Shown piece by piece: positions 25,041 through 48,298 of a DNA stretch of 64,000 nucleotides. The stretch spans positions 3,172 to 67,171 of the forward strand of contig JADYYO010000342.1 of the NCBI GenBank assembly GCA_020853615.1. The letters run 5' to 3'. The translations under genes were made by a program, and so were the position numbers. Within the stretch, counting starts at the first letter, position 1. Each line of letters starts with the position of its first letter. The notes under the pieces were generated by a model that worked only from the letters and a program-made list of their open reading frames with translations, was not told where the DNA came from and searched no databases. Source of the DNA: Thermomicrobiales bacterium (GTDB taxonomy: Bacteria; Chloroflexota; Chloroflexia; Thermomicrobiales; UBA6265).

Positions 25041-25834
25041 TGCCCCCTTCCGTGACCGACCTTCCGGCCCGGCTCGAGCCTGCGGTTCGCGCGGTGATCG
25101 CCGCGCGCGATGCCGGCGAGCCTGGGATCCTGATGATCCGGAGCCCCGGGCTCGGGGCGAGCATGCTCGCGAGCCGGATCCCGACCATGATCGATCTCAC
25201 CGAGCACCAGCGGCGCTGGATCGCCGTCGAGCATGACGCGTCGACGTGGACGTGGGAGAGCAAGAGCCCCGCGCCGACCGGCGCGCCGTTCCAGGCGCCG
25301 CACTACACGATCAGCGCGCCCGCCATGGCCGCGCGCCCGCACCGGGCGCACGACGTGCGGTGTCTGAACCCGACCACGCCGCGGTGTCTCTGCGGGCTCG
25401 CGTCCGATCGCAGCGCCGGCGGGCACGTCGTGACGAAAGCGAGCGTGTGCGAGTTGGCGCGGTTTGGCGTCCTCTTGCTGGACGAGATCGAGGAATTCCA
25501 GCGGTCGACTCTCGAGGCCGCGCGCGAGCGGCTCACCCGGATGGGGCCCACCGCGCCGTTCGTCGTCGCGGCGGCGCGGCCCTGCCCGTGCGGATACGGC
25601 GCGCCGGAACCCGCGGGCTCGGCGTACTGGCGCGATTGCCAGTGCAGCGCCGACGCGATCGCGCGCCACGTCGCGCGCGTCCAGCGGCACGCCGGCATCC
25701 TGCGGCTGGTCCGGTCCGTGGTCCTGCCGACCAACGGGATCGCCAGCCGGCCCACCGAACCGGCCGGCGGCGGGCCCCGGTGCCCCGACCTGGCGACGAT
25801 CCGCGCCGCGATGGCGGCGGAGCGCGCGGCGTGA
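25037..25834 (+). CDS. ComM/YifB (Mg-chelatase-type) AAA+ -like protein, degenerate Walker A
   Basis: IRSPGLGASMLASRIP (vs GPPGSGKTMLA), APHYTIS (PHHTxS), FGVLLLDEIEEFQRSTLEAARERL, AARPCPCGY (NPCPCGY). Confidence 0.7.
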   Translation: MMPPSVTDLPARLEPAVRAVIAARDAGEPGILMIRSPGLGASMLASRIPTMIDLTEHQRRWIAVEHDASTWTWESKSPAPTGAPFQAPHYTISAPAMAARPHRAHDVRCLNPTTPRCLCGLASDRSAGGHVVTKASVCELARFGVLLLDEIEEFQRSTLEAARERLTRMGPTAPFVVAAARPCPCGYGAPEPAGSAYWRDCQCSADAIARHVARVQRHAGILRLVRSVVLPTNGIASRPTEPAGGGPRCPDLATIRAAMAAERAA

Positions 25835-27777: not shown

Positions 27778-28365
27778 ATGATCGTGATCCACCCCGACCA
27801 CAGCCTGACCGACCTGCAAGGCACGCTGCACCGCTGCGCCACCCGGCGCGTGGCCGAGCTCGCCGCCGCGACCAGCGCGCTCCGCGCGGCCGGCTGGACG
27901 GTGCGCGGCCCCGACACGCGCGCCGGCTGGCGCCGCCCGCTGCTGCTCGCGGGCGAGCGGTGCGGTGAGCCGCTGGACGGCGCGCGGAGCGACGAGCGCT
28001 GCCAGGGGCTGGTGATCTTCCGTGGCGGCGGCGTCGACGCGACGTCGCCCGACGCGCTCGTGATCGACGCCTGCGCGGGCCTGCCGCTCGCGGTGATCGA
28101 GGATCGTGGCGTCACGACGGCCGCCCGCGCGATCGTCGCGCTCTACCTCGGGCCGCTGCCCGGCGAGCCCATCCTGTACACCACGCACGGAGACGTTCGC
28201 GGCCCCTGTGGCCACGCTCACAAGTCGATCGAGGCCGCGGTGCGGTGCTTGCGCTCCGATCTGCGCACGAATTCGGACCGCAATGTAATGCGGCTGATCA
28301 ACGGGGGGCGTCAGCCGCTCACGCTCGACGAGGCTCGACTGGTGGATCACTTGGTGGAGGCGTAG
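27778..28365 (+). CDS. hypothetical protein (195 aa)
   Basis: AGGAGA RBS; MIVIHPDHSLTDLQGTLHRC... Confidence 0.75.
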   Translation: MIVIHPDHSLTDLQGTLHRCATRRVAELAAATSALRAAGWTVRGPDTRAGWRRPLLLAGERCGEPLDGARSDERCQGLVIFRGGGVDATSPDALVIDACAGLPLAVIEDRGVTTAARAIVALYLGPLPGEPILYTTHGDVRGPCGHAHKSIEAAVRCLRSDLRTNSDRNVMRLINGGRQPLTLDEARLVDHLVEA

Positions 28366-28368
28366 CCC

Positions 28369-29037
28369 GTGCCCAAGCCTATTCGCCCGCCGGTCTTTTC
28401 ACGCCGCTCGCCGCTCGCGCCCGGGCGCGTCCAGAACGCGGCGGCCCGCTGGTCCGACGCCATGCGCTACCCGCGCGAGCTCACCGACGACGCCGCGACC
28501 GGCGCCGCCGACGCGTACGCCGCCGAGCACGCCGCGCCCGTCATGCCGACGCGCGAGGCGTTCGTGGCGGCGGCCGGCCGCGCGCGCCTTGCGATCGCCG
28601 CGCTGGCGCTGGTGGCGGGCTGCGCTGGCCCCGCGCCCGAGCCCGGCCCGGACGGCGGCGCCGACGCCGGCGCCGACGCCGCGGACGGCGGCGCGTGCGC
28701 CGATCAGTGCCTGCCGCCCGACGCCGGCGACGCCGGCGCGGGCCTGCCGATCAACGCGGCGTGCGAGCCGACGCTCGACGAGTGCGCGCCCGGCCTGACG
28801 TGCCGGATCGCGTCCGCGCACGTCGGCACGTGCCGGCCGATCGGCACGCTCGCGGCCGGCGCGATCTGCACGGCGAGCGATCAGTGCGGCGCCGCCCAGG
28901 CGTGCCTGCCGGCGGAGGCACCCAACCGGCTGCGCTGCCAGGTCGTCTGCGCGATCGCGCGCCCGCTCGAGCGCTGCCAGGCCGGCGAGACCTGCGCCCC
29001 CCAGTGGGGTGCGGACACCGGCGTCTGCATCCCCTGA
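28369..29037 (+). CDS. Cys-rich lipoprotein
   Basis: Lipobox LALVAGC then a D/G/A linker and a 12-Cys domain (CADQC, CEPTLDEC, CTASDQC). Start is GTG 28369, or more likely ATG 28543. Confidence 0.7.
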   Translation: MPKPIRPPVFSRRSPLAPGRVQNAAARWSDAMRYPRELTDDAATGAADAYAAEHAAPVMPTREAFVAAAGRARLAIAALALVAGCAGPAPEPGPDGGADAGADAADGGACADQCLPPDAGDAGAGLPINAACEPTLDECAPGLTCRIASAHVGTCRPIGTLAAGAICTASDQCGAAQACLPAEAPNRLRCQVVCAIARPLERCQAGETCAPQWGADTGVCIP

Positions 29038-29052
29038 TTCCCCAGGAGTCCC

Positions 29053-29853
29053 ATGGAGATCCAACACTTCCCATACGCCCACCTGCGCGTCGCCGCGTGC
29101 AACCCGCGCGTCCAGATCGATCCCGCCGAGCTGCGCCAGCTGGCGCTGCACGTCGCGCGCGACGGCCTCTTGACGCCGCTCCGGGTGACGCCCGGCGGCG
29201 ACATCCTGGCCGGCCAGCGGCGCTGGCGCGCGATCGGGCTCGTGATCGCGTGGCGCGAGCATTTGGTCGACGGCGAGGATGGCGCGCAGCCCGACGAGCA
29301 TGCGCTGTTCGACATGCGGGCCCAAGCGCTGATCGGCGCGGTGCCGTGCGTCGTCGACGACGCCGGCGCCGCCCAGGCGCCGGTCCGCGCGCTCGCCGAG
29401 AACCTGCACCACGAGCCGATGAGCAGCTACGACACGGCCATGGCCTACGCCGCGCTGGCGGGCCCCGTCAACGAGCCGCGCCGGACGATGACCGAGCTTG
29501 CCCGCGAGACCGGGCGCAGCAAGAGCACCGTCTCGCGCATGCTGACCGCGTGGCGTCAGGCCGGCCCCGAGCTCCACGCCGCGTGGCAGGCGGGCCTGGC
29601 GTTCGAGCGCGTGCTCGCGCTGGCGGCGCTGCCGCTCGAGGCGCAGCGCGACGCGCTCGCTGGCGGTCACAAGAGTCACGGCCGGCCTGGGATCGAGGCC
29701 ACCAAGGCGGTGCTGCGCGAACTGCGCGAGACGCATGGCGACAGCCACCCGTACTCTGACGGCGCGATCGCCGCGCTGCGGTTCGTCGCCGGCGAGTTGC
29801 CGATGGACCAGTTCATCTCGACCATCAAGGCGGAAGTCGACGTCTCGCCATGA
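29053..29853 (+). CDS. ParB/Srx-fold N-terminal domain + HTH protein (ParB-like)
   Basis: LLTPLRVTPGGDILAGQRRWRA (GxRRxxA box), ENLHHEPMSSYDTA, HTH MTELARETGRSKSTVSRML; AGGAG RBS. Confidence 0.75.
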   Translation: MEIQHFPYAHLRVAACNPRVQIDPAELRQLALHVARDGLLTPLRVTPGGDILAGQRRWRAIGLVIAWREHLVDGEDGAQPDEHALFDMRAQALIGAVPCVVDDAGAAQAPVRALAENLHHEPMSSYDTAMAYAALAGPVNEPRRTMTELARETGRSKSTVSRMLTAWRQAGPELHAAWQAGLAFERVLALAALPLEAQRDALAGGHKSHGRPGIEATKAVLRELRETHGDSHPYSDGAIAALRFVAGELPMDQFISTIKAEVDVSP

Positions 29854-29892
29854 CGTCCGCGACCGCGATCACCCCCAGCACGGAGAATCCCT

Positions 29893-30105
29893 GTGACCAC
29901 TGAGAACCGCCCCGAGTGGAAACCCCACCGCGCAATCATCGCCGACCTGACGCCGAACCGCGCCACCGTCGTGCGCGTGCTGCCGCGCGGCGCGAAGGAC
30001 GCCGAGCACCGCCCTGACCAGCGGATGGTCGCCTCCGATGAGCCGATGTTCGTCGGTGATAGAGTGTGGATAACCGGACCCCAGGCCGTTGATATCGTGG
30101 GCTGA
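29893..30105 (+). CDS. hypothetical small protein
   Basis: GTG start with GGAGA RBS; TTENRPEWKPHRAIIADL... Confidence 0.55.
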   Translation: MTTENRPEWKPHRAIIADLTPNRATVVRVLPRGAKDAEHRPDQRMVASDEPMFVGDRVWITGPQAVDIVG

Positions 30106-30119
30106 ACAAGGAGATCGTC

Positions 30120-30590
30120 ATGGGTAATACCACCGCATTGATCTGTGGCCGCGGCACCGCACCGGCAGGCCTCCAAGCTGTCGTCGCGCAGGCAGACGCG
30201 CGCTGCGTCGTCATCGACCACCGCGATCCCGACGGGCAACGCAGCTGGTGGATCGATGGGCCGAATCGCGGTGAGCCGTTCGACGGCCAGTTGCAGCGCC
30301 GAATCTGCGCCGCCGCCAAGGCGCAGGGGATTGCCGGGTTCGTCGACGAGAGCGAGGCGACGGTGCCGGTCGCGCCCGCGCCGCGGCGGCGGGGCGGCGT
30401 CCACCGCCACCGCCCCAAGCACACCGACGAGCGCGTGTACATGGGCGAGCACCCCGCCGGCGCCGCCTACGCCAAGGTCCAGTCCGCCCAAGGTGGCGTC
30501 GCCATCCGCGACACGTGCAGCTGCGGCGCGACTCGCCTGACGCTCGCCAATGGCGCCCACGTCGCCCGCGGCAGTTGGACCTCGCCGTGA
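30120..30590 (+). CDS. hypothetical protein (156 aa)
   Basis: AAGGAG RBS; MGNTTALICGRGTAPAGLQAVV... Confidence 0.7.
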   Translation: MGNTTALICGRGTAPAGLQAVVAQADARCVVIDHRDPDGQRSWWIDGPNRGEPFDGQLQRRICAAAKAQGIAGFVDESEATVPVAPAPRRRGGVHRHRPKHTDERVYMGEHPAGAAYAKVQSAQGGVAIRDTCSCGATRLTLANGAHVARGSWTSP

Positions 30591-30799
30591 GATTCTACCG
30601 CGTTCACTTCAAGGCCTTCGACGTCGGATCGGCTGGCTTCGAGTTCTTCACCAATGAAGCCGCCGCCCGGAAGGCGCTGCGGCGCGACGCGCGGATGGAG
30701 CACGACCCGAGCTCGCTCGAGGTGATCGACGTCGAGCCTACCAAGGCGGGGATCTTGCGCGCCCTGCAACGCTACGCGAGCCACCCGGACAACGGGTAG
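30587..30799 (+). CDS. hypothetical small protein
   Basis: GTGA overlap; VRFYRVHFKAFDVGSAGFEFFTNEAAARKAL... Confidence 0.6.
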   Translation: MRFYRVHFKAFDVGSAGFEFFTNEAAARKALRRDARMEHDPSSLEVIDVEPTKAGILRALQRYASHPDNG

Positions 30800-30802
30800 A
30801 CT
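30797..30802 (+). promoter_or_regulatory. TAGACT box, 7 nt upstream of ATG 30810
   Basis: gGTAGACTGgcgcggATG; the TAG is also the stop of the upstream gene. Confidence 0.45.
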
Positions 30803-30809
30803 GGCGCGG

Positions 30810-30929
30810 ATGCTAACGGTCATGCGGGTTTGTTTCGGGATTGCCTTGTTGGCGTTCATCATCTACGCGACGCTGGCTGTGGTCGCAGGCGTCCGCCTGC
30901 TTTGGTGGCGCCTTCATCGCCGTCGGTAG
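30810..30929 (+). CDS. 39-aa single-TM protein (not in ORF track)
   Basis: MLTVMRVCFGIALLAFIIYATLAVVAGVRLLWWRLHRRR; sits just upstream of the lysis genes. Confidence 0.45.
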   Translation: MLTVMRVCFGIALLAFIIYATLAVVAGVRLLWWRLHRRR

Positions 30930-30945
30930 TGGTAGCGTCGCTGGC

Positions 30946-31191
30946 ATGGGATCGCTCTTGCGGCGCTGCGCGCCGTTCGTCGCCGTGCTGGCCTCGCTCC
31001 TGATCGCCTGCGCCACCCACGGCTGGACGCCGTGGTGCTGGGCCTGCGCGTGCGTCTGGACGGGCGACGCCCCGGCCACCCGGGCCAACGTCGACGGGGC
31101 GCTCTGCGCCTACCACGAGGCGCACGACGACGACGCGATCGTGCCGACGTGCCAGCGGTGCCTGATCGAGCGGGGGCTGGTCGCGATCTGA
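30946..31191 (+). CDS. small Cys-rich membrane/secreted protein
   Basis: MGSLLRRCAPFVAVLASLLIACATHGW...; the upstream part of tracked ORF 30841-31191 overlaps the 39-aa gene in another frame. Confidence 0.5.
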   Translation: MGSLLRRCAPFVAVLASLLIACATHGWTPWCWACACVWTGDAPATRANVDGALCAYHEAHDDDAIVPTCQRCLIERGLVAI

Positions 31192-31197
31192 TAGGAT
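31192..31197 (+). promoter_or_regulatory. TAGGAT box, 7 nt upstream of ATG 31205
   Basis: ctgaTAGGATggcggccATG. Confidence 0.4.
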
Positions 31198-31204
31198 GGC
31201 GGCC

Positions 31205-31771
31205 ATGCGTTTCTTCCGCCCGTCCCTGTTGTTCCTGACCCTCTGTTGCTTTGCGCTGCTCACGATGCTCTCGGTGCCGTGGGCGCTGGCCCAGGTCGCG
31301 CCCGCGACGCCGACCGCGTCCGACGGTGGGATGTTCTGGCAGGTCACCGACGGCGTGCTCAGGATCGTCGGGCCGGCGCTGGCGATCGTCCTGACCGCCC
31401 TGGCTGCGTTGCTGGTCCGGACGTTCCAGCAGAAGACGCACGCGACCGTCACCGATCGGCAGATGGCGATGATTGACACGTGGGTGGACGAGGCGGTGCG
31501 CTGGGTGGAGGAGCAGGTCCACAAGCGCGCCAAGGCCGGCGCCGGCAAGCCCGGCCCCGAGAGCAAGCTCGAGATGGGCGTGCGCTACGTGCTCGACCTG
31601 GTGGAAGCGGCTGGCATCCCCGGGTGGACCGCCCAGAAGGTCCAGCAGAAGATCGAGGCGGCGCTCCAGCACGAGCGGGTGGTGAACCGATCGCGCAGCT
31701 CGCTTGCGGAGGCGTTCGGCATGGGTCCGGACGCGATCAAGCCGCCGCCCAGCACCGGCGACGCGCCGTGA
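31205..31771 (+). CDS. holin, LL-H-like family
   Basis: N-terminal hydrophobic segments, then WVDEAVRWVEEQVHKRAKAGAGKPGPESKLEMGVRYVLDLVEAAGIP...KIEAAL, matching the LL-H holin pattern. Alternative ATG at 31196. Confidence 0.6.
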   Translation: MRFFRPSLLFLTLCCFALLTMLSVPWALAQVAPATPTASDGGMFWQVTDGVLRIVGPALAIVLTALAALLVRTFQQKTHATVTDRQMAMIDTWVDEAVRWVEEQVHKRAKAGAGKPGPESKLEMGVRYVLDLVEAAGIPGWTAQKVQQKIEAALQHERVVNRSRSSLAEAFGMGPDAIKPPPSTGDAP

Positions 31772-32280
31772 GCATCGCGATCGGCCTCGCCGCGCTGGCG
31801 GTGATCGGGAGCCTGGTGGCGCTCGCGTTCTACGCGCTGCGCCAGGCGTTCAAGCGCACCGACCAGGCGCTCGAGGGGTGGGTGTCGGCGCTCAAGCACG
31901 CCGACCGCGCGCTCGCGCTCCAGGACCGCGTTGACGTGCTGGGGCGGGAGGTGGAGAGTCGAGATCATGCCCTGGCCGACGTCAACCGCGAGATCACCCA
32001 GCACCGAAGCGCCCTCGAAGTCGTCCGCCGCCAGCGCGACGCCGCGCGCGACGGGCTCCAGGATATCCTCGCGCGCGTCACCGCCGGCGGCGATCTCGCC
32101 GGGCCGGCGGCTGCGCCTCGCGTGGCTCAGCTGGTGCGCGCTCAGCTTGACCGCCTGCAAGCTCTGGGGGGGCGGAGCGCCAGCGGCACGTTGCCCGGAG
32201 CCCCTGCCCCCGCTGCCGGCGCCGCCGCCGACGCTCCAGGTAGTGGAGCGGACGTGCGCGGGCCCGGACCTGCCGGCTGA
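31768..32280 (+). CDS. i-spanin-like protein (N-terminal TM + coiled coil)
   Basis: GTGA overlap; VSIAIGLAALAVIGSLVALAFYAL followed by a R/E/D/L-rich coiled coil. Confidence 0.6.
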   Translation: MSIAIGLAALAVIGSLVALAFYALRQAFKRTDQALEGWVSALKHADRALALQDRVDVLGREVESRDHALADVNREITQHRSALEVVRRQRDAARDGLQDILARVTAGGDLAGPAAAPRVAQLVRAQLDRLQALGGRSASGTLPGAPAPAAGAAADAPGSGADVRGPGPAG

Positions 32281-32461
32281 CGCGCTGGCCTTCCTGGCGC
32301 GCGACTGGCCCGAGCCCGATGCCCAGGGCGGCACCTATCTCTCCCCGCTCGCGACGATCAAGTTCGTGACCGCGCTGACCGCGCTGAACGACTACATCGA
32401 GGACGACCATGCCCAGTGCCACGCGCCGGCGCCCGCCCCAGCCGCAGCCCCAGACCCGTAG
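31967..32461 (+). CDS. o-spanin-like lipoprotein overlapping the i-spanin gene in another frame (start unresolved)
   Basis: RLRLAWLSWCALSLTAC (lipobox Cys codon 32156-32158) then Pro-rich CPEPLPPLPAPPP. No ATG/GTG lies close upstream (CTG at 32111; first ATG at 31967). Confidence 0.4.
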   Translation: MPWPTSTARSPSTEAPSKSSAASATPRATGSRISSRASPPAAISPGRRLRLAWLSWCALSLTACKLWGGGAPAARCPEPLPPLPAPPPTLQVVERTCAGPDLPADALAFLARDWPEPDAQGGTYLSPLATIKFVTALTALNDYIEDDHAQCHAPAPAPAAAPDP

Positions 32462-32999
32462 GTGCCGGTTCGAGGGCCGCCACGGCCGCTGCACCAGCAT
32501 CGCCACCAGCGACGGTTTTTGCGGTCGCCATCTCGAGGAGATCGCCGCCGACGTCGCGACGCCGACCCTGGGCGAGTCGATCCTGAACCTGTTTGCCGGC
32601 ACGCCGCGCCAGCAGCGCAAGGCCCAGGAGCACGTCGTGGCGGGGCTCGGCCAGTTCTTCCAGCAGACGATCGATCGGCGCTTCCCGCCGCCCGGCGCGC
32701 CGCCGGCTGGTGGCCAGGTCGGGCCCGGCCCGGCGGGGCCGGCGCGGCCACGCGTCTCGCCCGAGGCGATCGAGCGGCGCAAGCGGCAGATCGCGGCGCG
32801 CGCGACGATCGGGTTCGAGCCCGACGAGCCGCTGACCGTCGACGCGATCCGCAAGCGCCGCCATGAGCTCATGCGGGTCTGGCACACCGACAAGGCGGCC
32901 GGCGCGCCGGACCCGACGCGCGAGAAGATGGTCCGCCAGATCAACGCCGCCACCGAGTTCCTGCTGGCGCACGTCGCGCCCCCTCCGCCCCAACCGTAG
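32409..32999 (+). CDS. J-domain-like protein (HTD instead of HPD) with N-terminal Cys/His cluster
   Basis: LTVDAIRKRRHELMRVWHTDKAAG...REKMVRQINAATEFLL; N-terminal CRFEGRHGRCTSIATSDGFCGRH. Confidence 0.65.
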   Translation: MPSATRRRPPQPQPQTRRCRFEGRHGRCTSIATSDGFCGRHLEEIAADVATPTLGESILNLFAGTPRQQRKAQEHVVAGLGQFFQQTIDRRFPPPGAPPAGGQVGPGPAGPARPRVSPEAIERRKRQIAARATIGFEPDEPLTVDAIRKRRHELMRVWHTDKAAGAPDPTREKMVRQINAATEFLLAHVAPPPPQP

Positions 33000-33017
33000 C
33001 GGCGCCCCCCGGGGCGG

Positions 33018-33026
33018 TGGTAGCAT
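33018..33026 (+). promoter_or_regulatory. extended -10-like TGGTAGCAT upstream of the SLT gene
   Basis: Identical 9-mer to 40208-40216. Confidence 0.3.
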
Positions 33027-33058
33027 GACCCCCAGCTTTCCCAGGCTGGGGCCCCGCG

Positions 33059-33679
33059 TTGCTGCCCACGACCTACGATCCGCTGTTCCGCCGCTACGCG
33101 GGTTCGATCCCGGTCGCCTACCTGCGCGCGCTCACGCAGCGCGAGAGCGGCTTCAACCCCCGCGCCAACGCCGGCAAGGCGGCCGCGCAGGGCCTGCTGC
33201 AGATCACGACCGTGGCGCGCGACGCCTTCAACCGCGCCCAGGGCACGAGCTACACGCGGGACGACACGCTCGATCCCGAGGTGAACATCCGGATCGCGAC
33301 CAACCTGCTCCAGCGCATCATCGCCAGCTACCGCGCGCACCCGAGCGCCAACATGCGCGAGGACTGGAGCAACCCGGCGTTCGTCCAACTGCTGACCGCC
33401 GGCTGGAACGCCGGCTACTCCGAGGGCGGCGGCGTCGGCAAGGTCGCGCGCTACCTCGAGCAGCGCAACCTGCCGGTCACGCCCGCCACGGTCTACCAGC
33501 ACGCCGGCGCGGCCGGCGCGGTCGCGTTCTTGTCCGATCCGGCCCGGGCCCGCTGGCACCAGTCGGTGGCCGAGCTCTACCTGGCGCAGCCCGATCGCGC
33601 CTCCGCCGCCACGCCGGCGCTGGGCCTGCTGGCCATGGCGCTGCTCGCGTGGGGCGGCTACACCCTGCTGACGAGGTGA
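33059..33679 (+). CDS. lytic transglycosylase (SLT domain) with C-terminal TM anchor; endolysin candidate
   Basis: LTQRESGFNPRANAGKAAAQGLLQIT (catalytic-Glu motif ES-GLLQI); TTG start; ends LGLLAMALLAWGGYTLLTR. Confidence 0.75.
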   Translation: MLPTTYDPLFRRYAGSIPVAYLRALTQRESGFNPRANAGKAAAQGLLQITTVARDAFNRAQGTSYTRDDTLDPEVNIRIATNLLQRIIASYRAHPSANMREDWSNPAFVQLLTAGWNAGYSEGGGVGKVARYLEQRNLPVTPATVYQHAGAAGAVAFLSDPARARWHQSVAELYLAQPDRASAATPALGLLAMALLAWGGYTLLTR

Positions 33680-33683
33680 TCCG

Positions 33684-34310
33684 ATGGCCCCCAGCCTGCG
33701 CAACCTGACCCTGGGGCTGCCCCAGCAATTCGTGGAGACGGTCGCCGACCGGCTCCGCCAGACCGGCGGCCGGATGTCGCCCGAGGTGGCGCGCGCGCTG
33801 CCGAACGGGCCTGCCGGCGCCGACGCCAAGGATCTGCAGCGGTGGCGGACCGAGATGTCGGTCATCTTCACGACGCAGCTCGGCGTCTCGCAGCAGTTCT
33901 ACCAGGCCGAGCAGTGGCAGATCGTCCAGGTCATGCTCGAGACCGCGGGCCCGGTCGCGATCTCGACGCGGACCGACGTGCTGCCGGTGCTGTCGGGCAA
34001 GGGCCGGCTGCTCACGACGAACATCAACTACAAGTTCGTGCTGCCGCGGGGCGCGCGCCTCTACTACGCCGCCGAGTCGGTCAACCGGATCGCGTTCTCG
34101 GTGGAGCCGATCCCGTGGCTCGAGCAGCTCGCGATGGAGATCCGCCGCGTCAGCGCGGGCGGACTCGCGGGCGCGAAGGAGATCGTCAAGGCCGTCCTGC
34201 GCGGCCAGCCGGCGCGCGACGAGCTGCCCGCGATGCCCGAGCCGCCGCCGCCGGCGAGCGCGCCGCCGCCGCTCCGCCAGCTCAAGCGCCTCCCCAACTT
34301 CCGCGGATAG
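33684..34310 (+). CDS. hypothetical beta-rich protein (208 aa)
   Basis: Full ORF; WQIVQVMLETAGPVAISTRTDVLPVL...YKFVLPRGARLYYAAESVNRIAFSVEP. Confidence 0.7.
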   Translation: MAPSLRNLTLGLPQQFVETVADRLRQTGGRMSPEVARALPNGPAGADAKDLQRWRTEMSVIFTTQLGVSQQFYQAEQWQIVQVMLETAGPVAISTRTDVLPVLSGKGRLLTTNINYKFVLPRGARLYYAAESVNRIAFSVEPIPWLEQLAMEIRRVSAGGLAGAKEIVKAVLRGQPARDELPAMPEPPPPASAPPPLRQLKRLPNFRG

Positions 34311-34319
34311 CGAGCCCCC

Positions 34320-35237
34320 ATGACCCTGCCCAACCAGCCCAGCTCCGTCGACGCGGTCCTCGCCAACCAGGACTTCTTCCGGATCTTCCAGCCCGTCACG
34401 AGCCCCGGGGACATCTGGGAGATCGACAACGGCGCGCACGCGGTCTACATCGGCCCCAACAGCGATCTCGCGAAGGTCCGGCTGGCCTACTACCAGCGCG
34501 CGGCCGCGCTGAACCAGCAGGAGATCGCCGACGTCTCGGTCAACGGCCCGTTCGCGACGCGGATCGACGCGCTCAACGTCACGCCCTACCAGGGCCTGGG
34601 CGGCCAGAAGGGGCGGATCCTCGCCTACCCCGACGACATCGTGGATCTGGCCTACGAGCGCCCGACGTCGGCGCTCTCGGTGCCGCAGCGGCGCTACAAC
34701 GTCGTCCCGCGGATCGACCTGATCACCGCGCTCAAGCAGATCCCGGACATCCCGCAGGTCCGCGCCGATCGGACGCTCCGCTTCCCGCGGGTGCCGTTCC
34801 AGAACCTGGGCGAGACCGACACCAACGGCTCGACCGACATCGTGATTCCGATCTACGGCCGCCGCATGGTGACCGTCCAGATCGTCACGCCGGCGCTGGT
34901 CGCGCACGAGACCTCGTTCTTCCTGGCCGCGCTGCAGCCGGGCACGACGCAGCCGTTCGCCAAGTTCCTGGGCTCGGTGCTCAAGCCAGCGATCGCGGTC
35001 CAGGACACCGACTCCGTCGTCTACCGCGCCTCCGACCAGGTCAGCCAGATCACCGGCACTGGCACCACCGACGCGCCGTCGACGTTCGACTACACGCAGG
35101 AGTCGCAGCCGCTGCCGAGCGCCAAGGGCCAGGCCGACCTGCTGATCATCAACGTGCGCCCGGCGTACGGCGAGACCCCGCCGCCCGGCTACTCGATGAT
35201 CTCGCTGTTCATCCAGGTCTCCGACCGTGAGGCGTAG
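34320..35237 (+). CDS. hypothetical beta-rich virion-like protein (305 aa)
   Basis: Full ORF with normal composition, ends ADLLIINVRPAYGETPPPGYSMISLFIQVSDREA. Confidence 0.75.
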   Translation: MTLPNQPSSVDAVLANQDFFRIFQPVTSPGDIWEIDNGAHAVYIGPNSDLAKVRLAYYQRAAALNQQEIADVSVNGPFATRIDALNVTPYQGLGGQKGRILAYPDDIVDLAYERPTSALSVPQRRYNVVPRIDLITALKQIPDIPQVRADRTLRFPRVPFQNLGETDTNGSTDIVIPIYGRRMVTVQIVTPALVAHETSFFLAALQPGTTQPFAKFLGSVLKPAIAVQDTDSVVYRASDQVSQITGTGTTDAPSTFDYTQESQPLPSAKGQADLLIINVRPAYGETPPPGYSMISLFIQVSDREA

Positions 35238-35621
35238 ATGACGACCCCCGCGACCACCATCCAAGAGGCGATCGACCTGGCCGCCGACAACATCGCGGAG
35301 CTGTCCTACGACGGCGTCGTGTCGCTGGCCAGCCGGATGAACGACTGGGTCGACGGCATGTTCGTCGCCCCGGCCGGGATCTACATCGACGTCGACAGCA
35401 CGTCCCAGCGCCGGGTGCTGGACTGGTTCGGGCCGACGCGCCGGGCGCAGGCCGAGATCGAGGGCCCGAACCCCGGCGACAGCGGGCTGATCGGCACGTC
35501 GGCGGTGATCGACGCCGTCACGCGCGCGCTCTGCGCGGTGCGCGACTCGGCGCTGGCCGGCGCGATCACGGCGACGCAGGAGACCGACACGGTGACGCTG
35601 TTCAACACGGCGTGGACCTGA
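35238..35621 (+). CDS. hypothetical protein (127 aa)
   Basis: TAGATG junction; MTTPATTIQEAIDLAADNIAEL... Confidence 0.7.
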   Translation: MTTPATTIQEAIDLAADNIAELSYDGVVSLASRMNDWVDGMFVAPAGIYIDVDSTSQRRVLDWFGPTRRAQAEIEGPNPGDSGLIGTSAVIDAVTRALCAVRDSALAGAITATQETDTVTLFNTAWT

Positions 35622-35623
35622 CG

Positions 35624-35878
35624 ATGAAGATCGTCGACGCCCGCTCGGGCAAGGCCGTCCAGATCGGCCAGACGATCAAGTACCCGTGGACCCCGGAGTT
35701 CCAACCCCACGGGCCAGAGTGGATCAGGCTGGTCGACGTCCGTCCCGGCATCTGGAGCGCGAGCGCCATCATCCAGCGCGGCAACGGGGTGCGGTCCGAG
35801 ACCCTCGAGATCCCGCTGGTCGTGCGCTGGACGCACCCGAGCTACTTTCTGCAGCACGTCGCGTTTCTGCCGACGTAG
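35624..35878 (+). CDS. hypothetical small protein (84 aa)
   Basis: MKIVDARSGKAVQIGQTIKYPWTPEF... Confidence 0.65.
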   Translation: MKIVDARSGKAVQIGQTIKYPWTPEFQPHGPEWIRLVDVRPGIWSASAIIQRGNGVRSETLEIPLVVRWTHPSYFLQHVAFLPT

Positions 35879-35881
35879 ACT
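35876..35881 (+). promoter_or_regulatory. TAGACT box, 7 nt upstream of ATG 35889
   Basis: cGTAGACTGcggcgcATG; the TAG is the stop of the upstream gene. Confidence 0.45.
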
Positions 35882-35888
35882 GCGGCGC

Positions 35889-36452
35889 ATGCGCTCTCCC
35901 ACGAACCTCGAACGCCGCCCGATCAACCGCTGGGACTCCTTCGCCACCGACGAGTTTCGCCACCGCGCCTACCTGTTCGGGAGCGGGAACATCGGACGCA
36001 TGGACCACTGCAACATGGACGTGCCGGGCTCGCTGTCGCCGGACCTGACGACGGTGATCGAGCACGTCTACGCGCGGACCGAGGCGGCCCCGCGCGATCT
36101 GGTGGCGACCCTCGATCTCCATCGGTGGGCCAGCCACGCGGTCGTCCGCTTGCTCGTCGGCGACAAGCCGCGCCGCGTGTTCGCCCTGGCGGATCTGCTG
36201 CAGGAACGTCCGTGGGAGCCGGCGGCCATCGCGATCGCGCGCGAGATGGAGGCCGGCGAGCCCGCGGCGGCAGGAGTGGTCGCGGCCTACAAGGAGCGTC
36301 TCGGACAGCGGCGCGGCGACGGGCCGCCGGGGGTGGAGGTGCCGGTGCGCCAGTACGTCGCCGTCGACATCGATGCTCCGGACTGGCCGCCCGGGCCGCC
36401 GACCCGGATCTGGATCCATCTCGAGGGCTTCCAGGTCTGGCCGCAGTGCTGA
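35889..36452 (+). CDS. hypothetical protein (187 aa)
   Basis: Full ORF MRSPTNLERRPINRWDSFATDEFRHRAYLFG... Confidence 0.7.
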   Translation: MRSPTNLERRPINRWDSFATDEFRHRAYLFGSGNIGRMDHCNMDVPGSLSPDLTTVIEHVYARTEAAPRDLVATLDLHRWASHAVVRLLVGDKPRRVFALADLLQERPWEPAAIAIAREMEAGEPAAAGVVAAYKERLGQRRGDGPPGVEVPVRQYVAVDIDAPDWPPGPPTRIWIHLEGFQVWPQC

Positions 36453-36643
36453 TCGGCTTCGACCGCACGAGCGGCGAGATCCTGATCGACCGTCACGGTC
36501 GCCGCATCACCGATGTTGGTCTCGCGGCGTTGTGGTTGCGCTGGGACGCTGGCACGCCACCCGAGACGCGGGTTGCCGAGACGCTCGTGATCGACAACTA
36601 CACCCGGGGGCGCGACGACGGGATCCCGAGTGCCTTCGGGTAA
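36446..36643 (+). CDS. hypothetical small protein (65 aa)
   Basis: GTG overlapping the upstream stop (GTGCTGA); VLIGFDRTSGEILIDRHGRRITDVGLAALW... Confidence 0.5.
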   Translation: MLIGFDRTSGEILIDRHGRRITDVGLAALWLRWDAGTPPETRVAETLVIDNYTRGRDDGIPSAFG

Positions 36644-36653
36644 GGGCTACGTG

Positions 36654-36659
36654 TAGACT
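36654..36659 (+). promoter_or_regulatory. TAGACT box, 7 nt upstream of ATG 36667
   Basis: gtGTAGACTGcggcccATG. Confidence 0.45.
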
Positions 36660-36666
36660 GCGGCCC

Positions 36667-37687
36667 ATGAAGCTCTCCGTCATCACTCCGACCTGTCGCT
36701 CCAACCCGCGGTTCGCGGAGATGGCGGCGACGCTCCTGCAGTCGTTCATGCGCGCGCCGGCGACGACGCTGCTCGAGTGGCTCATCGTCGACGAGGTGCT
36801 CTGGCGCGATCCGCCCGAGGAGCGCCTGGCGCCGATCACCGAGGCGCTCGCGACACTGCCGCTCGAGGTGCGCCAGCGGATCCACGTCGATCACTTCGCG
36901 CCGCCGCCCGGCCAGCACCGCGGCCCCGACATCGCCGACCCGCTGCCCGCCCACAACACCGCGCGCAACGCCGGCCTGGCCGCGGTCGCGCCGGACAGCC
37001 GCTACGTCATCATCCTGTCGGACTGCTCGCTCGTCACGTCCGACTGGGTCACCGTCGCGTGCGAGCTGGCGCAGCAGCACGTGGGCTGGAAGTGCCGGCT
37101 GGCGCAGGTCCACGACATGGTCGTGCCCCACCACCAGCCGCTCCGCTACCAGGACGCGTGGGACACGTTCCACCCGGTCGCAGCGACGACGGTGGCCGGG
37201 CCGTGCTGGGGCGCGCCGCTCGACGCGTTCCTCGCGGTGGGCGGCTTCGACGCCGACTACGACGGCGAGGACGACTACTACGACCACGAGATCCTGCTGC
37301 GCCTCAGCCGCGTCGGGATCCAGTTCCACACCACCAAGCGCGCCGGCGTCGTCCGGCTCCGCCGCACCCTCGTCAAGCACGAGGTGACCAACCACCGCGA
37401 GGTGCTCCATGCGAAGCGCAACGTCGCCTTCTACCGCGCCCTGGCCGCCGACCGCGATCGTCTCCTGCCGGGTGGCAACGCCACCGGAGGTGCCCAGCTT
37501 GGCCGAGGCGCCCCCCACCAGCCGCCGCGTCCCGCTCCGGCTCCGGCTCCGGCTCGCGTGGCGCCGCCTGTGGCGGCCGGAACGCGTCGGGTTCCGGGCG
37601 CTGGCGTTCCGCCGGCGCGACCTGCACCGGCGCGTCCTGCGGCTGCACCTGCTGCAGACCACCGGCTCGCGGTGGGATCCGCCGTGA
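36667..37687 (+). CDS. family-2 (GT-A) glycosyltransferase; reading frame switches +1 near 37450-37500
   Basis: MKLSVITPTCRSNPRF..., GGFDADYDGEDDYYDHEILLRL. GC3 collapses in the starting frame after ~37455 while the +1 frame has high GC3 and stops at 37685-37687. Confidence 0.6.
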
Positions 37688-39309
37688 CGGCCGCGCCGCC
37701 GGTCGCGCGCAGGAACGATCCCCTGACGCCGGCGGCGCACGCGAGCGAGATCTGCGGCTACGTCCACGACGGCACCGCCTGCAAGCTGGTCACCGGCCAC
37801 GCCGGCGCGCACGTCTTCGGGACGCCCGAGTGGGTGTTCGGCGTCGACCCGGCGACGTACGTGCCGCGGTACCGGGAGCTCGAGGCCGCGATGGCCGAGC
37901 GCCGCCTCGCGATCGCCGATCCCCAGACGCCGGCCGAGCGGATCGAGCCGCTCAAGGCGGAGATCGCGGGGCTGGCCGACGAGCAGTCCGATCTCTGGTA
38001 TGCGCTCAGCCCGGCGCAGAAGGACGAGGTGGACCCCGAGGGCGCGCAGGCGCGCGCCTACGCCCGCGAGGCGGGCTCGATCCCGCAGGAGGCCCCGCTG
38101 TCGCTCCACGAGCGCGCCCAGCAGGCGAAGGCGGCCAAGGCGGCCCGGGTGGCGGCCGAGCAGGCCGGGACCGCGCCACCGCTGGCGGACGACGAGCGCT
38201 GCCCGTACACGCCCACCCAGGGGAGCTACGCCGGCATGCGTTGCCGCCACCGCGCGCGCCACGGCGGGCCGCACGCCTACATCGGCCAGACGCCGGCGGC
38301 GCCGGCGGCGCCCGCGGCCAAGAAGCCCGCGCCCACCGTGCCCCGCACGCCGCCGCAGCCCACCGCGGCGATCCAGCAGACGATGACCGCGCTGGCGGAC
38401 CACGGCCAGGTCGTGGTCGGCGAGCTCGCGCTCCTGCCCAAGAACCGCGCCCGGATCGCGGTGGCGATGGCGGTCGCGCTCCGCCAAGACGGGCTGCTCA
38501 CGCTCGAGGCCGACTACCGGCAGTTGCTGACCGAGATCGCCGCGGTCGAGTTCGGGCCGGCCGGCAACGCGCGGTCGGCTCTCGACGAGACGCCCGAGGG
38601 CTGGCTCGCCCAGCGGATGTCGACCTACGCCGGCGCCGAGCTCGACGCCGACCTGGCCGGCGTGGCCGAGATCTGCCAGATGCTCCCGGCGATCCCGGTC
38701 TCGCAGGTCGCGTTCCGCGCGCTCCACGACCACGCGCTGCAGGTCGACCGCTGGCGGGCCGCGAGCGGGCTGTCGCCCCGGGCCGAGATGAAGCTGATCG
38801 ATCGCGCCTACGCCTGCGCCGCCGACCACGGGATCGCGCTGACGCCGCCCGACGACTTTGGGGACTACGCGCTCGACGAGCTGGCCGAGCTCGAGCGCGC
38901 CAACGCCGAGGTGGGCCAGGACGAGATCGCGTCGGTCGAGCCGCTCTCGGCGGCGGCCGCCGCGTGGGAGGCGATGGGCCCGGTCCGGGCGATCGTCCAC
39001 ACCGACGCCTACCTGCAGGCGATCGCGCACGCCAACGGCATCACCGTCGACGAGGCGCAGCGCCGGCGGGACCAGCCGGTGACGCCCGCCGATCAGCCGC
39101 ACGACGACTACGCGACGATCGTGCGCTGGGTGGCGCCTGCCGACGTCACCGGGTTGCTGGCGAAGAACTGGGTGCTGGTCAACGAGGACGACCAGGATCA
39201 GCTCCGCACCTGCTGGCCGCTGCCGGAGCCCGAGTGGCCCGAGGAGCGCCAGCTGGCGTGGGTGCCCGACGCCGACGCGGTCGCGATGCTGACGCTCGAT
39301 CCGCTGTAG
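37684..39309 (+). CDS. hypothetical protein (541 aa) with two Cys/His motifs
   Basis: GTG 37684 in a GTGA overlap with the +1-frame stop; CGYVHDGTACKLVTGHAGAHVF and CPYTPTQGSYAGMRCRHRARHGGPHAY; GC3 high again from here. Confidence 0.6.
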   Translation: MTAAPPVARRNDPLTPAAHASEICGYVHDGTACKLVTGHAGAHVFGTPEWVFGVDPATYVPRYRELEAAMAERRLAIADPQTPAERIEPLKAEIAGLADEQSDLWYALSPAQKDEVDPEGAQARAYAREAGSIPQEAPLSLHERAQQAKAAKAARVAAEQAGTAPPLADDERCPYTPTQGSYAGMRCRHRARHGGPHAYIGQTPAAPAAPAAKKPAPTVPRTPPQPTAAIQQTMTALADHGQVVVGELALLPKNRARIAVAMAVALRQDGLLTLEADYRQLLTEIAAVEFGPAGNARSALDETPEGWLAQRMSTYAGAELDADLAGVAEICQMLPAIPVSQVAFRALHDHALQVDRWRAASGLSPRAEMKLIDRAYACAADHGIALTPPDDFGDYALDELAELERANAEVGQDEIASVEPLSAAAAAWEAMGPVRAIVHTDAYLQAIAHANGITVDEAQRRRDQPVTPADQPHDDYATIVRWVAPADVTGLLAKNWVLVNEDDQDQLRTCWPLPEPEWPEERQLAWVPDADAVAMLTLDPL

Positions 39310-39312
39310 ACT
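39307..39312 (+). promoter_or_regulatory. TAGACT box, 7 nt upstream of ATG 39320
   Basis: ctGTAGACTGgagcgcATG; the TAG is the stop of the upstream gene. Confidence 0.45.
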
Positions 39313-39319
39313 GGAGCGC

Positions 39320-39937
39320 ATGGCGCTCGACCTCGGCTTCCGGAAGCCCGTCCCCGACAACGTCTTTGCCGAGGTGATGAGCGGGTGGGGCCGGCCGCGC
39401 GCCGGCGGCAAGGAGCACTCGGGGCTCGACATCCTCCTGCCGATCGGCAAGCCGGTCGTGGCGATGGCGGACGGGCAGGTGATCCGCGTCCAGGCCACCG
39501 ACGACGGCGGCTCGGCCGGCATCTTCCTCGTGATCCGCCACCCGTCGGGGATCTCGAGCCGCTACATCCACCTGGGCCGGGCCGACGTGCGGCTCAACCA
39601 GCAGGTCGCCAAGGGCCAGGTGATCGGCGCGTCGGGCAACACCGCGATCAAGAACAGCCCGCCGCACATGCACGTCGACATCAAGGTGCCGGCGGCGCTC
39701 TTGCCGCAGATCGAGGCGGCCGCCGGCAAGCCGCCGGGCGGGTGGCACCCGCTGGTCAACCCCTGGGGCTACGGCGTGCCGGCCGAGCCGTGGATCCCGG
39801 TCGACCGCTACTCGGCCCGGACGCTCGAGGACGCGCAGCGCAACGGGATCCCGCTCTACCGGGGCGGGGCCGCGAAGGCGGTCGGGCTCGCCGCGCTGCT
39901 GCTCTTGGGCTGGGGGCTCTACCGCCTGACGCGCTAG
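39320..39937 (+). CDS. M23/LytM metallopeptidase with C-terminal TM anchor
   Basis: HSGLDILLPIGKPVVAMADGQV, RYIHLGRADVRLNQQVAKGQVIGASGNT, PPHMHVDI; ends AVGLAALLLLGWGLYRLTR. Confidence 0.8.
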   Translation: MALDLGFRKPVPDNVFAEVMSGWGRPRAGGKEHSGLDILLPIGKPVVAMADGQVIRVQATDDGGSAGIFLVIRHPSGISSRYIHLGRADVRLNQQVAKGQVIGASGNTAIKNSPPHMHVDIKVPAALLPQIEAAAGKPPGGWHPLVNPWGYGVPAEPWIPVDRYSARTLEDAQRNGIPLYRGGAAKAVGLAALLLLGWGLYRLTR

Positions 39938-40200: not shown

Positions 40201-40206
40201 CCGACG

Positions 40207-40216
40207 ATGGTAGCAT
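40207..40216. promoter_or_regulatory. overlapping divergent -10 boxes in a 23-bp intergenic gap
   Basis: Plus strand TAGCAT (40211-40216) + 7 nt + ATG 40224. Minus strand TACCAT (40212-40207) + 6 nt + ATG 40200. Confidence 0.45.
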
Positions 40217-40223
40217 CGGCCCC

Positions 40224-40571: not shown

Positions 40572-40573
40572 CC

Positions 40574-41188
40574 GTGCCGATCCGCGGCCAGCGCGTCGTG
40601 ATCGTCGGGGACAGCCTGTCGGCCGGGCCGCACACGCCCGGCCAGGTGCTGGCCGATCGGCTCGCCGCCGCCGGCGCCGACGTTCGCGTGAACGCGCGCG
40701 TCGGGCGCAGCGCCAACAACTTCTACGGCCGCGAGGACTGGCGGGGCCAGCTGCAGCAGATCGCGGCGACGCACCCCGACGTCGCGATCGTCGTGCTCGG
40801 CACCAACGACATCGGCCTGTCGATGACCGTCGACGCCCAGCGCATGACGCAGCTCCGCGACGCGCTCGCCGGCGCCGGCGCCGACGTCTACGCGTTCGGG
40901 CCGCCGACGTTCCCGCCCGGCACCCGGCTGGTCGCCGGCCAGCCCCAGGTCGTGCGGATGATGCGCGACGTGTTCGGCGGTGATCGCTTCATCGACCTGA
41001 CGCCGCTGACCGCCGACCTGGTGACGAGCCAGCACCGGACCGGAGACCAGGTTCACTTCACCGCCGCCGGCGGCGACGTCGCCGGGCAGCGCATGGCCGA
41101 CGCGTTCCTGCGGGCCTCGAGCGCGCCGGGCGGCGGCTGGCCGGTCGCGGTCGCGCTGCTCGTGGCCGGCTGGTTCCTGCTGCGGTAG
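40574..41188 (+). CDS. SGNH/GDSL hydrolase (esterase) with C-terminal TM anchor
   Basis: GTG start; VVIVGDSLSAG (block I), VLGTNDIG (block III), GDQVHFT (block V DxxH); ends GGWPVAVALLVAGWFLLR. Confidence 0.75.
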   Translation: MPIRGQRVVIVGDSLSAGPHTPGQVLADRLAAAGADVRVNARVGRSANNFYGREDWRGQLQQIAATHPDVAIVVLGTNDIGLSMTVDAQRMTQLRDALAGAGADVYAFGPPTFPPGTRLVAGQPQVVRMMRDVFGGDRFIDLTPLTADLVTSQHRTGDQVHFTAAGGDVAGQRMADAFLRASSAPGGGWPVAVALLVAGWFLLR

Positions 41189-42118
41189 CTACGGCTGGAG
41201 GCCGTAGGCGTAGTTCATCGGGATGCGCTGCTCGATCCCGTCGAACCAGACGTGGGCGCGGCCCGGGATCCGGACCTGCTTGCCCCAGCCCTTGGTGCCG
41301 GTGAAGACGTCGAAGTGCGCGCCGAAGATGCCGCCGCCGGTGTCGTTCACGGTCACCCAGCCGTCGTGGACGTCGCCGCCCGGCAGGCGGAGCCCGACGA
41401 GCTCGAGCACCCAGACCCGGGTGCCGGCCGGCACGACGCCGCCCAGGCTCGCGTAGCGATCGTCGTGCCGCGGCAGCCGGCCGTTGTCGGCGGCGACCGT
41501 GCGGAACGGCCGGCACTCGATCCCCTTGGCGCAGATCGGCCAGCCGCCGGGCCCGGGCCGCTTCACCGCGAACGTGCGGACCTGCGTCACCTGCTGGCCG
41601 CTGACCCGCAGCCCGGCGTACCCCGGCTTGTTGGGCAGCCAGCCGTTGCGCTGCGCCAGCGCCAGCACCGGCTTGTAGAGCGGGGCGTCGGCGCCGGCGT
41701 CGCGCCAGCCGCTCACGTTGATCAGCCGCCCGTCCGCGAGGATGCTCGAGCCCTCGAGCGAGGCCTCGACGAACGCGTGGGCGTTGACCGGCGCGAGCAC
41801 GTGCCCGTCGGCGCCGTAGAGCGGCACCTGGCCCGGGCCCCACGGCTGGACCATGCCCACGTGGTAGTAGGTCAACTGCCAGCGGCGCATCGACTGGATC
41901 TGCGCCGGCGCGCTGCGCTGCAGGGCCTGCGCGATCGGCGCGAGGACGTGGTCCGTCTTGGCGCCGAACCACCCGTCGGCCTCGCCGCACGCCGGGTAGT
42001 CGCGCTGGAAGCGCCGCAGGTCGTCGCGCCAGTTCTCGCCCTCGTAGTCGCCGTCCACCTCGCCGTCGTAGTAGCCCAGCTTCTGGAGTGCGGCCTGTGC
42101 CTCGGGGATGCTCAGCAT
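41189..42118 (-). CDS. peptidoglycan-binding domain + 3D (MltA/RlpA-like) domain muralytic protein
   Basis: LQKLGYYDGEVDGDYEGENWRDDLRRFQ...ADGWFGAKT; C-terminal VNDTGGGIFGAHFDVFTG. Confidence 0.75.
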   Translation of the reverse strand: MLSIPEAQAALQKLGYYDGEVDGDYEGENWRDDLRRFQRDYPACGEADGWFGAKTDHVLAPIAQALQRSAPAQIQSMRRWQLTYYHVGMVQPWGPGQVPLYGADGHVLAPVNAHAFVEASLEGSSILADGRLINVSGWRDAGADAPLYKPVLALAQRNGWLPNKPGYAGLRVSGQQVTQVRTFAVKRPGPGGWPICAKGIECRPFRTVAADNGRLPRHDDRYASLGGVVPAGTRVWVLELVGLRLPGGDVHDGWVTVNDTGGGIFGAHFDVFTGTKGWGKQVRIPGRAHVWFDGIEQRIPMNYAYGLQP

Positions 42119-42149
42119 GGCCGCGAGCGTACCCCGGGCCGGCCCGGCG

Positions 42150-42853: not shown

Positions 42854-42859
42854 GGTGGG

Positions 42860-44833: not shown

Positions 44834-44845
44834 GTCCGAAAACAC

Positions 44846-48293: not shown

Positions 48294-48298
48294 CCCCG

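Follow-up and report, generated by a model that had tools for sequence, protein, structure and literature searches.

A large phage J protein family with an N-terminal Cys/His cluster, and a clade of it with HTD in place of HPD encoded beside a tail-anchored transglycosylase

The only characterised phage J-domain protein is Rki, the product of gene 057w of the T4-like phage RB43, which works through DnaK and stabilises sigma-32 (PMC3486835). Among cellular J proteins, DjlB and DjlC of E. coli carry HPE at the position of the His-Pro-Asp (HPD) motif yet retain function with HscC, a dedicated Hsp70, and altered motifs are also known from the pseudo-J proteins Pam16/Tim16, with DKE or DKS, and DNAJB13, with HPL (PMC13254874). 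The biogenesis of DjlC ties together J proteins, DnaK and tail anchoring (PMC6794478). The J protein considered here is encoded in a 64,000 bp stretch of DNA (the window; contig JADYYO010000342.1, positions 3,172 to 67,171 of the forward strand, assembly GCA_020853615.1 of a Thermomicrobiales bacterium) that appears to come from an uncultured temperate phage of ~72 kb with 72% G+C. It has a cluster of three Cys and one His (CCCH) at its N-terminus, a linker, and a C-terminal J-domain in which the tripeptide is His-Thr-Asp (HTD).

Like Rki, the protein is a small phage-encoded class-C J protein with no other annotated domain, and use of DnaK is proposed for it. The two differ in that the J-domain of Rki is N-terminal with HPD, whereas that of the window protein is C-terminal with HTD, follows an N-terminal CCCH cluster and is encoded within a cluster of membrane- and wall-active genes. 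E. coli DjlA has a C-terminal J-domain, as the window protein does, and DjlA, DjlB and DjlC are likewise class-C J proteins; however, they are cellular and membrane-anchored, whereas the window protein is viral and has no transmembrane segment. The variation in DjlB and DjlC is at the Asp (HPE), while in the window protein it is at the Pro. In Pam16/Tim16 and DNAJB13, too, the J-domain is recognisable and its HPD altered, but these proteins have lost the His and/or the Asp, whereas in the family described here only the Pro is replaced and most orthologues have HPD. With HTD at the aligned HPD position, the window protein falls within the published definition of type IV, or pseudo-J, proteins (PMC13254874). 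As far as its sequence goes, it resembles a class-C J protein yet is formally type IV because the HPD tripeptide is lost, the His and Asp being kept and the Pro replaced.

The J gene is an open reading frame (ORF) of 196 codons with an ATG at 32409 and a TAG at 32997-32999. The window is 70-75% G+C throughout, and the G+C content of the gene at the three codon positions (0.72/0.59/0.92) is typical for genes of the window. The GC frame plot shifts into its frame at ~32420 and a GAGGA Shine-Dalgarno sequence lies 5 nt 5' of the ATG. The start codon is well supported, because the N-terminus MPSATRRRPPQPQPQTRRCR is conserved among the close homologues, being kept in five of six. Both the ORF and the peptide LTVDAIRKRRHELMRVWHTDKAAGAPDPTREKMVRQINAATEFLL quoted for it in the first-pass annotation are present. 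No hydrophobic or transmembrane segment and no lipobox were found in the 196 residues, and Pfam and PHROG searches gave no match to a lysis family or a hydrolase domain. The J protein is therefore outside the known lysis-protein classes (holin, antiholin, endolysin, spanin) and is merely located among such genes.

A word-indexed search of 5.8 billion proteins identified six close homologues, 46-97% identical and all unnamed, which together with the J protein of the window form a 7-member HTD clade. The profile of these seven sequences matched at least 320 clusters at E<=1e-3 in a search of 1.84 billion representatives. Nearly all of these clusters are 140-210 amino acids in length, are matched across their full length and have a common architecture, with the N-terminal consensus MP..R.RC.Y.EGGRRC.R.G.G.PPLC..H and the C-terminal consensus ..LGF....LT...I..RRR.LARK.HPD..GGS..M..IN.AAD.LL. 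This is a large, previously undescribed phage family with a CCCH + J architecture, and where a few dozen phage J sequences were known, it adds a family of hundreds whose architecture is new.

The J-domain homology rests on this wider family, because neither the protein alone nor the HTD clade alone gives a significant match. A profile of 110 family sequences matched 45 PDB chains, all J-domains and nothing else, including those of DNAJA1, E. coli DnaJ, CbpA, Tim14 and HscB (best E=2.9e-7), and 71 of the 110 sequences match the Pfam DnaJ model (PF00226) individually. In an hhalign comparison, the HTD clade aligned with 24 HPD members of the family over its full length (99.8%, E=1.7e-29, 168 columns), and WHTD fell on HHPD. 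Judged from these profiles, the homology is transitive yet solid; the family profile, the hhalign alignment and the PF00226 matches bear out the earlier suggestion of a J-domain with HTD replacing HPD. A structure model, named in the first-pass annotation as a check, is in partial agreement. The AlphaFold2 (AF2) model, based on a shallow alignment of seven sequences, has three confident helices, I (118-134), II (144-160) and III (169-189), with a predicted local distance difference test score (pLDDT) of ~90 and no helix IV. A Foldseek search of the whole AF2 chain against the PDB has a DnaJ-like domain, 2ys8, as its top match, which is just weak support (prob 0.97, E=0.18, low TM-score); the low TM-score is explained by the search having been made with the whole, partly disordered chain.

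The W-H-T-D sequence is invariant in all seven members of the HTD clade, down to 46% identity. Within the clade, 37 positions of residues 115-190 are invariant, and almost none in the linker. The tripeptide was counted in 173 family sequences: 149 have HPD, 15 HTD, 5 HSD, 2 HGD, 1 HVD and 1 HDD, with the His and the Asp present in 173/173. In a neighbour-joining tree of the same 173 J regions, the J protein groups with P0001-P0008 and P0010 as one HTD clade, the sister of which, P0009, carries HPD, and the remaining non-Pro lineages are scattered. Fitch parsimony on this rough tree places Pro at the root and has the middle residue change at least 11 times (to T, S, G, V or D) and the His and Asp not at all. 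HTD thus marks one clade within an ancestrally HPD family, because most members carry HPD and WHTD aligns on HHPD, and the Pro has been lost repeatedly. The HTD noted earlier is present, but it is no isolated oddity.

The simplest reading is that the Pro would be dispensable, or nearly so, in this family and that the His and Asp would not. The same orthologous slot is occupied in the HPD sister locus L088 and in the independent variants L089 (HTD) and L090 (HSD). The loop that follows the motif is longer in the HTD clade than in most relatives, although it is equally long in L088. The Pro-to-Thr change would then be a lineage-specific, tolerated variant of the ancestral HPD rather than a sign of decay. 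The HPD motif has been treated as the defining and almost untouchable signature of Hsp70 co-chaperones, so that a family of orthologues in one genomic slot, with constant His and Asp and at least 11 exchanges of the Pro, offers a clean natural experiment on H-x-D. Whether natural deviations from HPD are accidents or are selected is considered an open question (PMC13254874). A literature search found no publication on an HTD variant of the motif.

The genes beside the J gene were compared at 16 loci, the window and L001, L003-L006, L080-L086 and L088-L090, on contigs of 8 to 107 kb, the distant J proteins among them being just 25-30% identical to that of the window. At 15 of the 16, an SLT-like lytic transglycosylase with a C-terminal hydrophobic tail is encoded downstream of the J gene, at most 1 kb away. 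In the window the SLT gene begins 59 nt after the J gene, and the last ~20 residues of its product are hydrophobic and end in Thr-Arg. In all 15 loci the tail is a Gly/Ala-rich hydrophobic stretch followed by 1-4 mostly basic residues. The SLT, M23 peptidase and GDSL esterase of the window end in a nearly identical tail, and related phages have further tail-anchored hydrolases (Table 1). Among these shared-tail hydrolases of the window and its relatives, none has an N-terminal signal. The spacer between the J and SLT genes holds a motif, CGCCCCCCGG ... GGTGGTAG, that is kept in three phages (window 33000-33058, L001 ~10595-10654, L088 ~6619-6691); the RNA fold of this GC-rich spacer is no better than that of shuffled sequences (z=-0.39).

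There is an even chance that the J gene encodes a class-C J protein which brings the DnaK of the host to a late-gene client of the phage, possibly the tail-anchored hydrolases. The J protein would bind and stimulate DnaK, and this DnaK would be that of the host, because the window proteins that were scanned include no Hsp70. The J-domain would dock on host DnaK-ATP, and D161, H159 and the basic helix II would trigger ATP hydrolysis. DnaK would then clamp a client bound by the N-terminal CCCH module, or placed next to it, this module selecting or positioning the client. The clients would be late, aggregation-prone phage proteins, which are the most likely candidates because the J gene is co-oriented, overlaps a spanin-like ORF and is directly upstream of the tail-anchored SLT gene in almost all relatives. 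The SLT, M23 and GDSL hydrolases are the leading candidates among them, since tail-anchored proteins must stay soluble until their post-translational insertion.

For E. coli there is evidence that DnaK and DnaJ aid the membrane targeting of the tail-anchored proteins TssL, DjlC and Flk (PMC3426401, PMC6794478). A connection between the J protein and tail anchoring is plausible by virtue of adjacency, and the adjacency of the J and SLT genes is circumstantial support for the earlier idea that the protein helps to insert C-terminally anchored hydrolases. That a chaperone can influence the membrane insertion of a phage lysis protein, or its timing, has precedents, which are cited within PMC10688784: host DnaJ modulates lysis by the L protein of MS2, and E of phiX174 depends on SlyD. 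Both chaperones are products of the host and serve single-gene lysis peptides, whereas here the J protein would come from the phage itself, encoded within a cluster of the holin/spanin/SLT type. A stronger version is rather doubtful, namely that the phage has a J protein of its own whose specific task is the biogenesis or timing of its tail-anchored wall hydrolases (SLT, M23, GDSL esterase, amidase). In this version the J protein would hand their Gly/Ala-rich tails to DnaK and so keep the enzymes soluble and inactive up to insertion or release at lysis, and an H-x-D lacking Pro would still trigger Hsp70. If true, this would be a chaperone-gated lysis step as described for no phage, and the invariant Pro of HPD would be dispensable. 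The near-constant pairing of J and SLT, together with the further tail-anchored hydrolases, points to an unexplored handling of lysis or wall-degrading enzymes, in a phage lineage of ~55-107 kb lacking any cultured or annotated relative.

Several points weigh against recruitment of DnaK to such clients. The J-domain is divergent, because the HTD clade alone fails to match J-domain models. The J protein by itself matched PF00226 at E=0.037, with 14.6 bits for a cutoff of 27.8, and had no match among PDB sequences or in PHROGs, and the HTD-clade profile gave no J-domain match in the PDB at E<=1. The AF2 model runs helix II on through H159-T160, and the loop may be distorted. The residues presumed equivalent to Y25 and K26 of DnaJ, going by an alignment of our own to DnaJ, are not conserved. 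The client would be identified from gene adjacency alone, and L081, the sole locus of the 16 without an adjacent SLT gene, departs from that adjacency. By the positive-inside rule, the basic residues at the ends of the tails would fit poorly with a simple N-in/C-out insertion. Also, in the current review HPE is the sole HPD replacement known to be tolerated, and altered motifs are usually read as those of non-stimulating type IV J proteins, the significance of which is not established (PMC13254874). Because that review knows no tolerated change besides HPE, a retained function of the HTD domain is inferred.

The last of these points could instead mean that the protein is a pseudo-J protein of type IV, in which the Pro-to-Thr change abolished ATPase stimulation. 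It could then keep DnaK bound or sequestered, or be a competitor of the host's DnaJ, and thereby delay or time lysis; alternatively it could be a DnaK-independent scaffold acting through the CCCH cluster. The altered HPD, with no tolerated change but HPE known (PMC13254874), is in keeping with this, as are the failure of the HTD clade alone to reach J-domain detection thresholds, the post-motif loop that is longer than in most relatives and the continuation of AF2 helix II through the motif. However, all lineages without the Pro still have the His and the Asp, which is unexpected if the role as a catalytic trigger was abandoned, and the domain is still highly conserved within the HTD clade. 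L088, the HPD sister, shares both the long loop and the context, so nothing else changed with the Pro-to-Thr replacement. In addition, at least 11 independent replacements, mostly by small residues, suggest tolerance over a single functional switch. A pseudo-J protein is accordingly held to be unlikely, though it deserves to be taken seriously.

Recruitment of DnaK by an active J-domain could also serve virion assembly, the J protein directing DnaK to fold or assemble the products of X, Y and Z, the genes that follow J and SLT in most relatives, or other virion proteins, and not the hydrolases. T4 gp31, a phage-encoded substitute for GroES dedicated to the capsid protein, provides an analogy. 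The order J-SLT-X-Y-Z is kept across most loci and there are no terminators inside the block. Y has at least 142 homologues, and its AF2 model, made from 59 homologues, is an all-beta structure of two sandwich domains (pLDDT 88, predicted TM-score 0.85), a compact fold with a weak, generic likeness to viral jelly-roll, tail-fibre and lectin folds. On the other hand, X, Y and Z have no family match and in particular none to a structural-protein family, and the fold matches listed for Y all have TM-scores <0.3. By gene size, L081, L089 and L090 have a J gene without the same X-Y-Z set, and L089 and L090 still have a tail-anchored SLT gene beside J. A morphogenesis chaperone is improbable on this evidence.

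PRD1 has a membrane-associated transglycosylase. Because the tail-anchored SLT recalls this enzyme, Y was considered as a double-jelly-roll capsid protein, in which case the tail-anchored enzymes would be virion-membrane proteins as in PRD1. This is unlikely and is not supported: the top 50 Foldseek matches listed for Y in the PDB and BFVD are just generic ones to jelly-rolls, lectins, tail fibres and birnavirus VP2, and the Y profile had no match among PDB sequences.

Least probable is a takeover of the host as by Rki, in which the protein would titrate DnaK from sigma-32 and so raise the host chaperones, or its basic CCCH N-terminus would attach to DNA or RNA and so recruit DnaK to replication or transcription, like polyomavirus T antigen. 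In favour, Rki acts in the first way (PMC3486835), the N-terminus has many Arg residues besides its CCCH cluster and a few family members match the CCCH-type models WRC and zf-TRM13_CCCH weakly, and there is a ParB-like gene upstream, but nothing outside the J-domain resembles Rki, the J gene is among membrane- and wall-active genes and not early or replication genes, and the idea of nucleic acid binding rests on sub-threshold motif matches alone.

The N-terminal Cys/His cluster is preceded by an Arg/Pro-rich stretch. It was reported in the first-pass annotation and is present, but with a different spacing: the first interval is not C-x7-C, the residues being C19-x8-C28-x9-C38-x2-H41. Across 110 family members C19, C28 and C38 are each >=90% conserved, and H41 is invariant in the 7-member HTD clade. 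Residues 27-44 match the Pfam family DUF5763 (PF19067) at E=4.2e-5, with 23.4 bits, below the curated gathering cutoff of 26.3. The likeness is in the C28...C38-x2-H41 segment, which aligns to positions 13-30 of the 39-position model, and DUF5763 is matched by just 8 of the 110 family members at E<=0.01. A literature search found no publication mentioning DUF5763, an uncharacterised short Cys-rich family. In the AF2 model, from the same seven sequences, the module forms short beta-hairpins and then a helix (pLDDT ~76), and the cluster may bind zinc. The linker has a pLDDT <50 (residues 51-108), is little conserved and varies in length and sequence in both the 7-member and the 110-member alignments.

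Clusters of the form C...C...(F)C-x2-H, like that of the J N-terminus, also begin the dual-specificity phosphatases of related phages. Similar clusters are found in an 88 amino acid window protein without a phosphatase domain (39934-40200, minus strand) and, twice, inside an 880 amino acid window protein (36667-39309, plus strand). A module shared with the DSPc phosphatases was rejected, as a hidden Markov model of the J-family N-terminus recovers J proteins alone and Pfam gives just weak Zf_WRKY19 and DUF5763 matches. The similarity of pattern between J proteins and DSPc phosphatases is a resemblance only.

The genes flanking the J gene are lysis-like, with a Holin_LLH-like gene and a spanin-like pair on one side and SLT on the other, as would fit the earlier placement of J inside a lysis cassette between spanins and endolysin. 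The assignment to a cassette is insecure, however, as there is a separate and more conventional endolysin candidate with PG_binding_1 and 3D domains, encoded outside the J gene cluster, and the conserved X, Y and Z are downstream. The Holin_LLH/spanin-like/J/SLT order recurs in L001, L088, L082 and L089, while no holin or spanin family match was found for the genes upstream of J in more distant relatives. Gene junctions around the J gene are short or overlapping, the J gene itself beginning 53 nt inside the 3' end of the o-spanin-like ORF. No promoter- or terminator-like sites were found in 29800-36800 and no Rfam families in 28000-46000.

The transmembrane/coiled-coil gene of the spanin-like pair is also called in L001, L082 and L088. 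It has no family match and its assignment as an i-spanin is based on architecture. The signal, Cys and Pro-rich pattern of the o-spanin-like ORF is kept in the overlapping frame of L001, L088, L082 and L089, or five loci with the window. Neither the window nor L001 has an ATG, GTG or TTG just 5' of the signal peptide. This leaves the start uncertain, and the ORF would have to begin at a non-canonical codon or be extended far at its N-terminus. If the overlapped i-spanin/o-spanin-like pair is what it appears to be, a diderm host is implied. The gene for the PG_binding_1 and 3D-domain protein is preceded by three small minus-strand genes (42150-43048), one with a transmembrane segment, and the integrase gene is nearby. 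At the equivalent position L081 and L086 encode GH25 + PG_binding_1.

Table 1. Features of the window and of related loci (window coordinates unless a locus is named).
Feature	Position	Strand	Evidence
J gene: CCCH cluster, linker, C-terminal J-domain with HTD	32409..32999	+	ORF, G+C at third codon positions (GC3) 0.92, homologues
N-terminal Cys/His cluster, putative zinc knuckle	32463..32531	+	Pfam DUF5763 sub-threshold, conservation, AF2
Pro/Gly-rich linker, predicted disordered	32544..32750	+	AF2, variable length and sequence in alignments
J-domain homologue, residues 115-190	32751..32978	+	family profile, hhalign, AF2
Codons CAC ACC GAC = H159-T160-D161 at HPD position	32883..32891	+	sequence, alignment to HPD relatives
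SLT lytic transglycosylase, 206 aa, C-terminal hydrophobic tail ALGLLAMALLAWGGYTLLTR at ~33608-33676	33059..33679	+	PF01464 E=3e-13; PHROG endolysin/transglycosylase families
M23 peptidase, same type of C-terminal tail VGLAALLLLGWGLYRLTR	39320..39937	+	PF01551 E=6.8e-22
GDSL/SGNH esterase, same type of C-terminal tail WPVAVALLVAGWFLLR	40574..41188	+	PF13472 E=5.9e-16
Tail-anchored amidase in relative	L082 9402-10172		
Tail-anchored alpha/beta hydrolase in relative	L088 11394-12038		
Tail-anchored M23 peptidase in relative	L089 7359-7886		
Holin_LLH-like membrane protein, 191 aa	31196..31771	+	PF09682 E=8.3e-9, 36.2 bits vs cutoff 24.9; PHROG holin families
i-spanin-like gene, N-terminal transmembrane segment + coiled coil, ~170 aa	31768..32280	+	translation, GC3 frame plot, architecture
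o-spanin-like ORF: signal peptide, lipobox LSLTAC (Cys 32156-32158), Pro-rich	32093..32461	+	+1 frame of transmembrane/coiled-coil gene
X, 208 aa	33684-34310	+	synteny
Y, 305 aa	34320-35237	+	synteny; homologues
Z, 127 aa	35238-35621	+	synteny
PG_binding_1 + 3D-domain protein, alternative soluble endolysin candidate	41189..42118	-	Pfam; weak PHROG endolysin match
Mg-chelatase-like AAA+ gene	25037-25834		
ParB-like gene, ~2.5 kb upstream of J gene	29053-29853		
Integrase	43976-44845		
DNA methyltransferase	48290-49888		
Glycosyltransferase	54942-56171		
Phosphatase genes headed by J-like Cys/His cluster	L081 8488-9084; L083 9422-9991; L084 9261-9863; L085 10444-11037; L005 9304-9876	-	pattern

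Most large ORFs of the window have no Pfam or PHROG match. For example, eight large minus-strand ORFs between 78 and 21231 were scanned, and none of them scores above a Pfam cutoff, nor do the seven compared with PHROGs match a family of known function. A J homologue of 76% identity is present on two independently assembled contigs (L001/L002; 72,386 and 72,394 bp) whose gene order is the same. No match to the J protein was found among INPHARED phage records by tblastn at E<=1, nor was one found by blastn of the 8 kb around the J gene. In IMG/VR and the GTDB genomes no close relative of the HTD clade was found, and a GTDB scan with the Y family likewise found none.

Phage J proteins had been described as rare, but they are not so rare as that: the review counted J proteins in 137 phage genomes (PMC13254874), to which the present family adds its hundreds of clusters. 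A search of IMG/VR with the degenerate pattern LA[RK][KR][HYF]HPD[RLK] found more than 70 further viral contigs with J-like segments (L007-L079), giant-virus bins (GVMAG) included. Because so many contigs match this pattern, J-domains may be fairly widespread in uncultured viruses.

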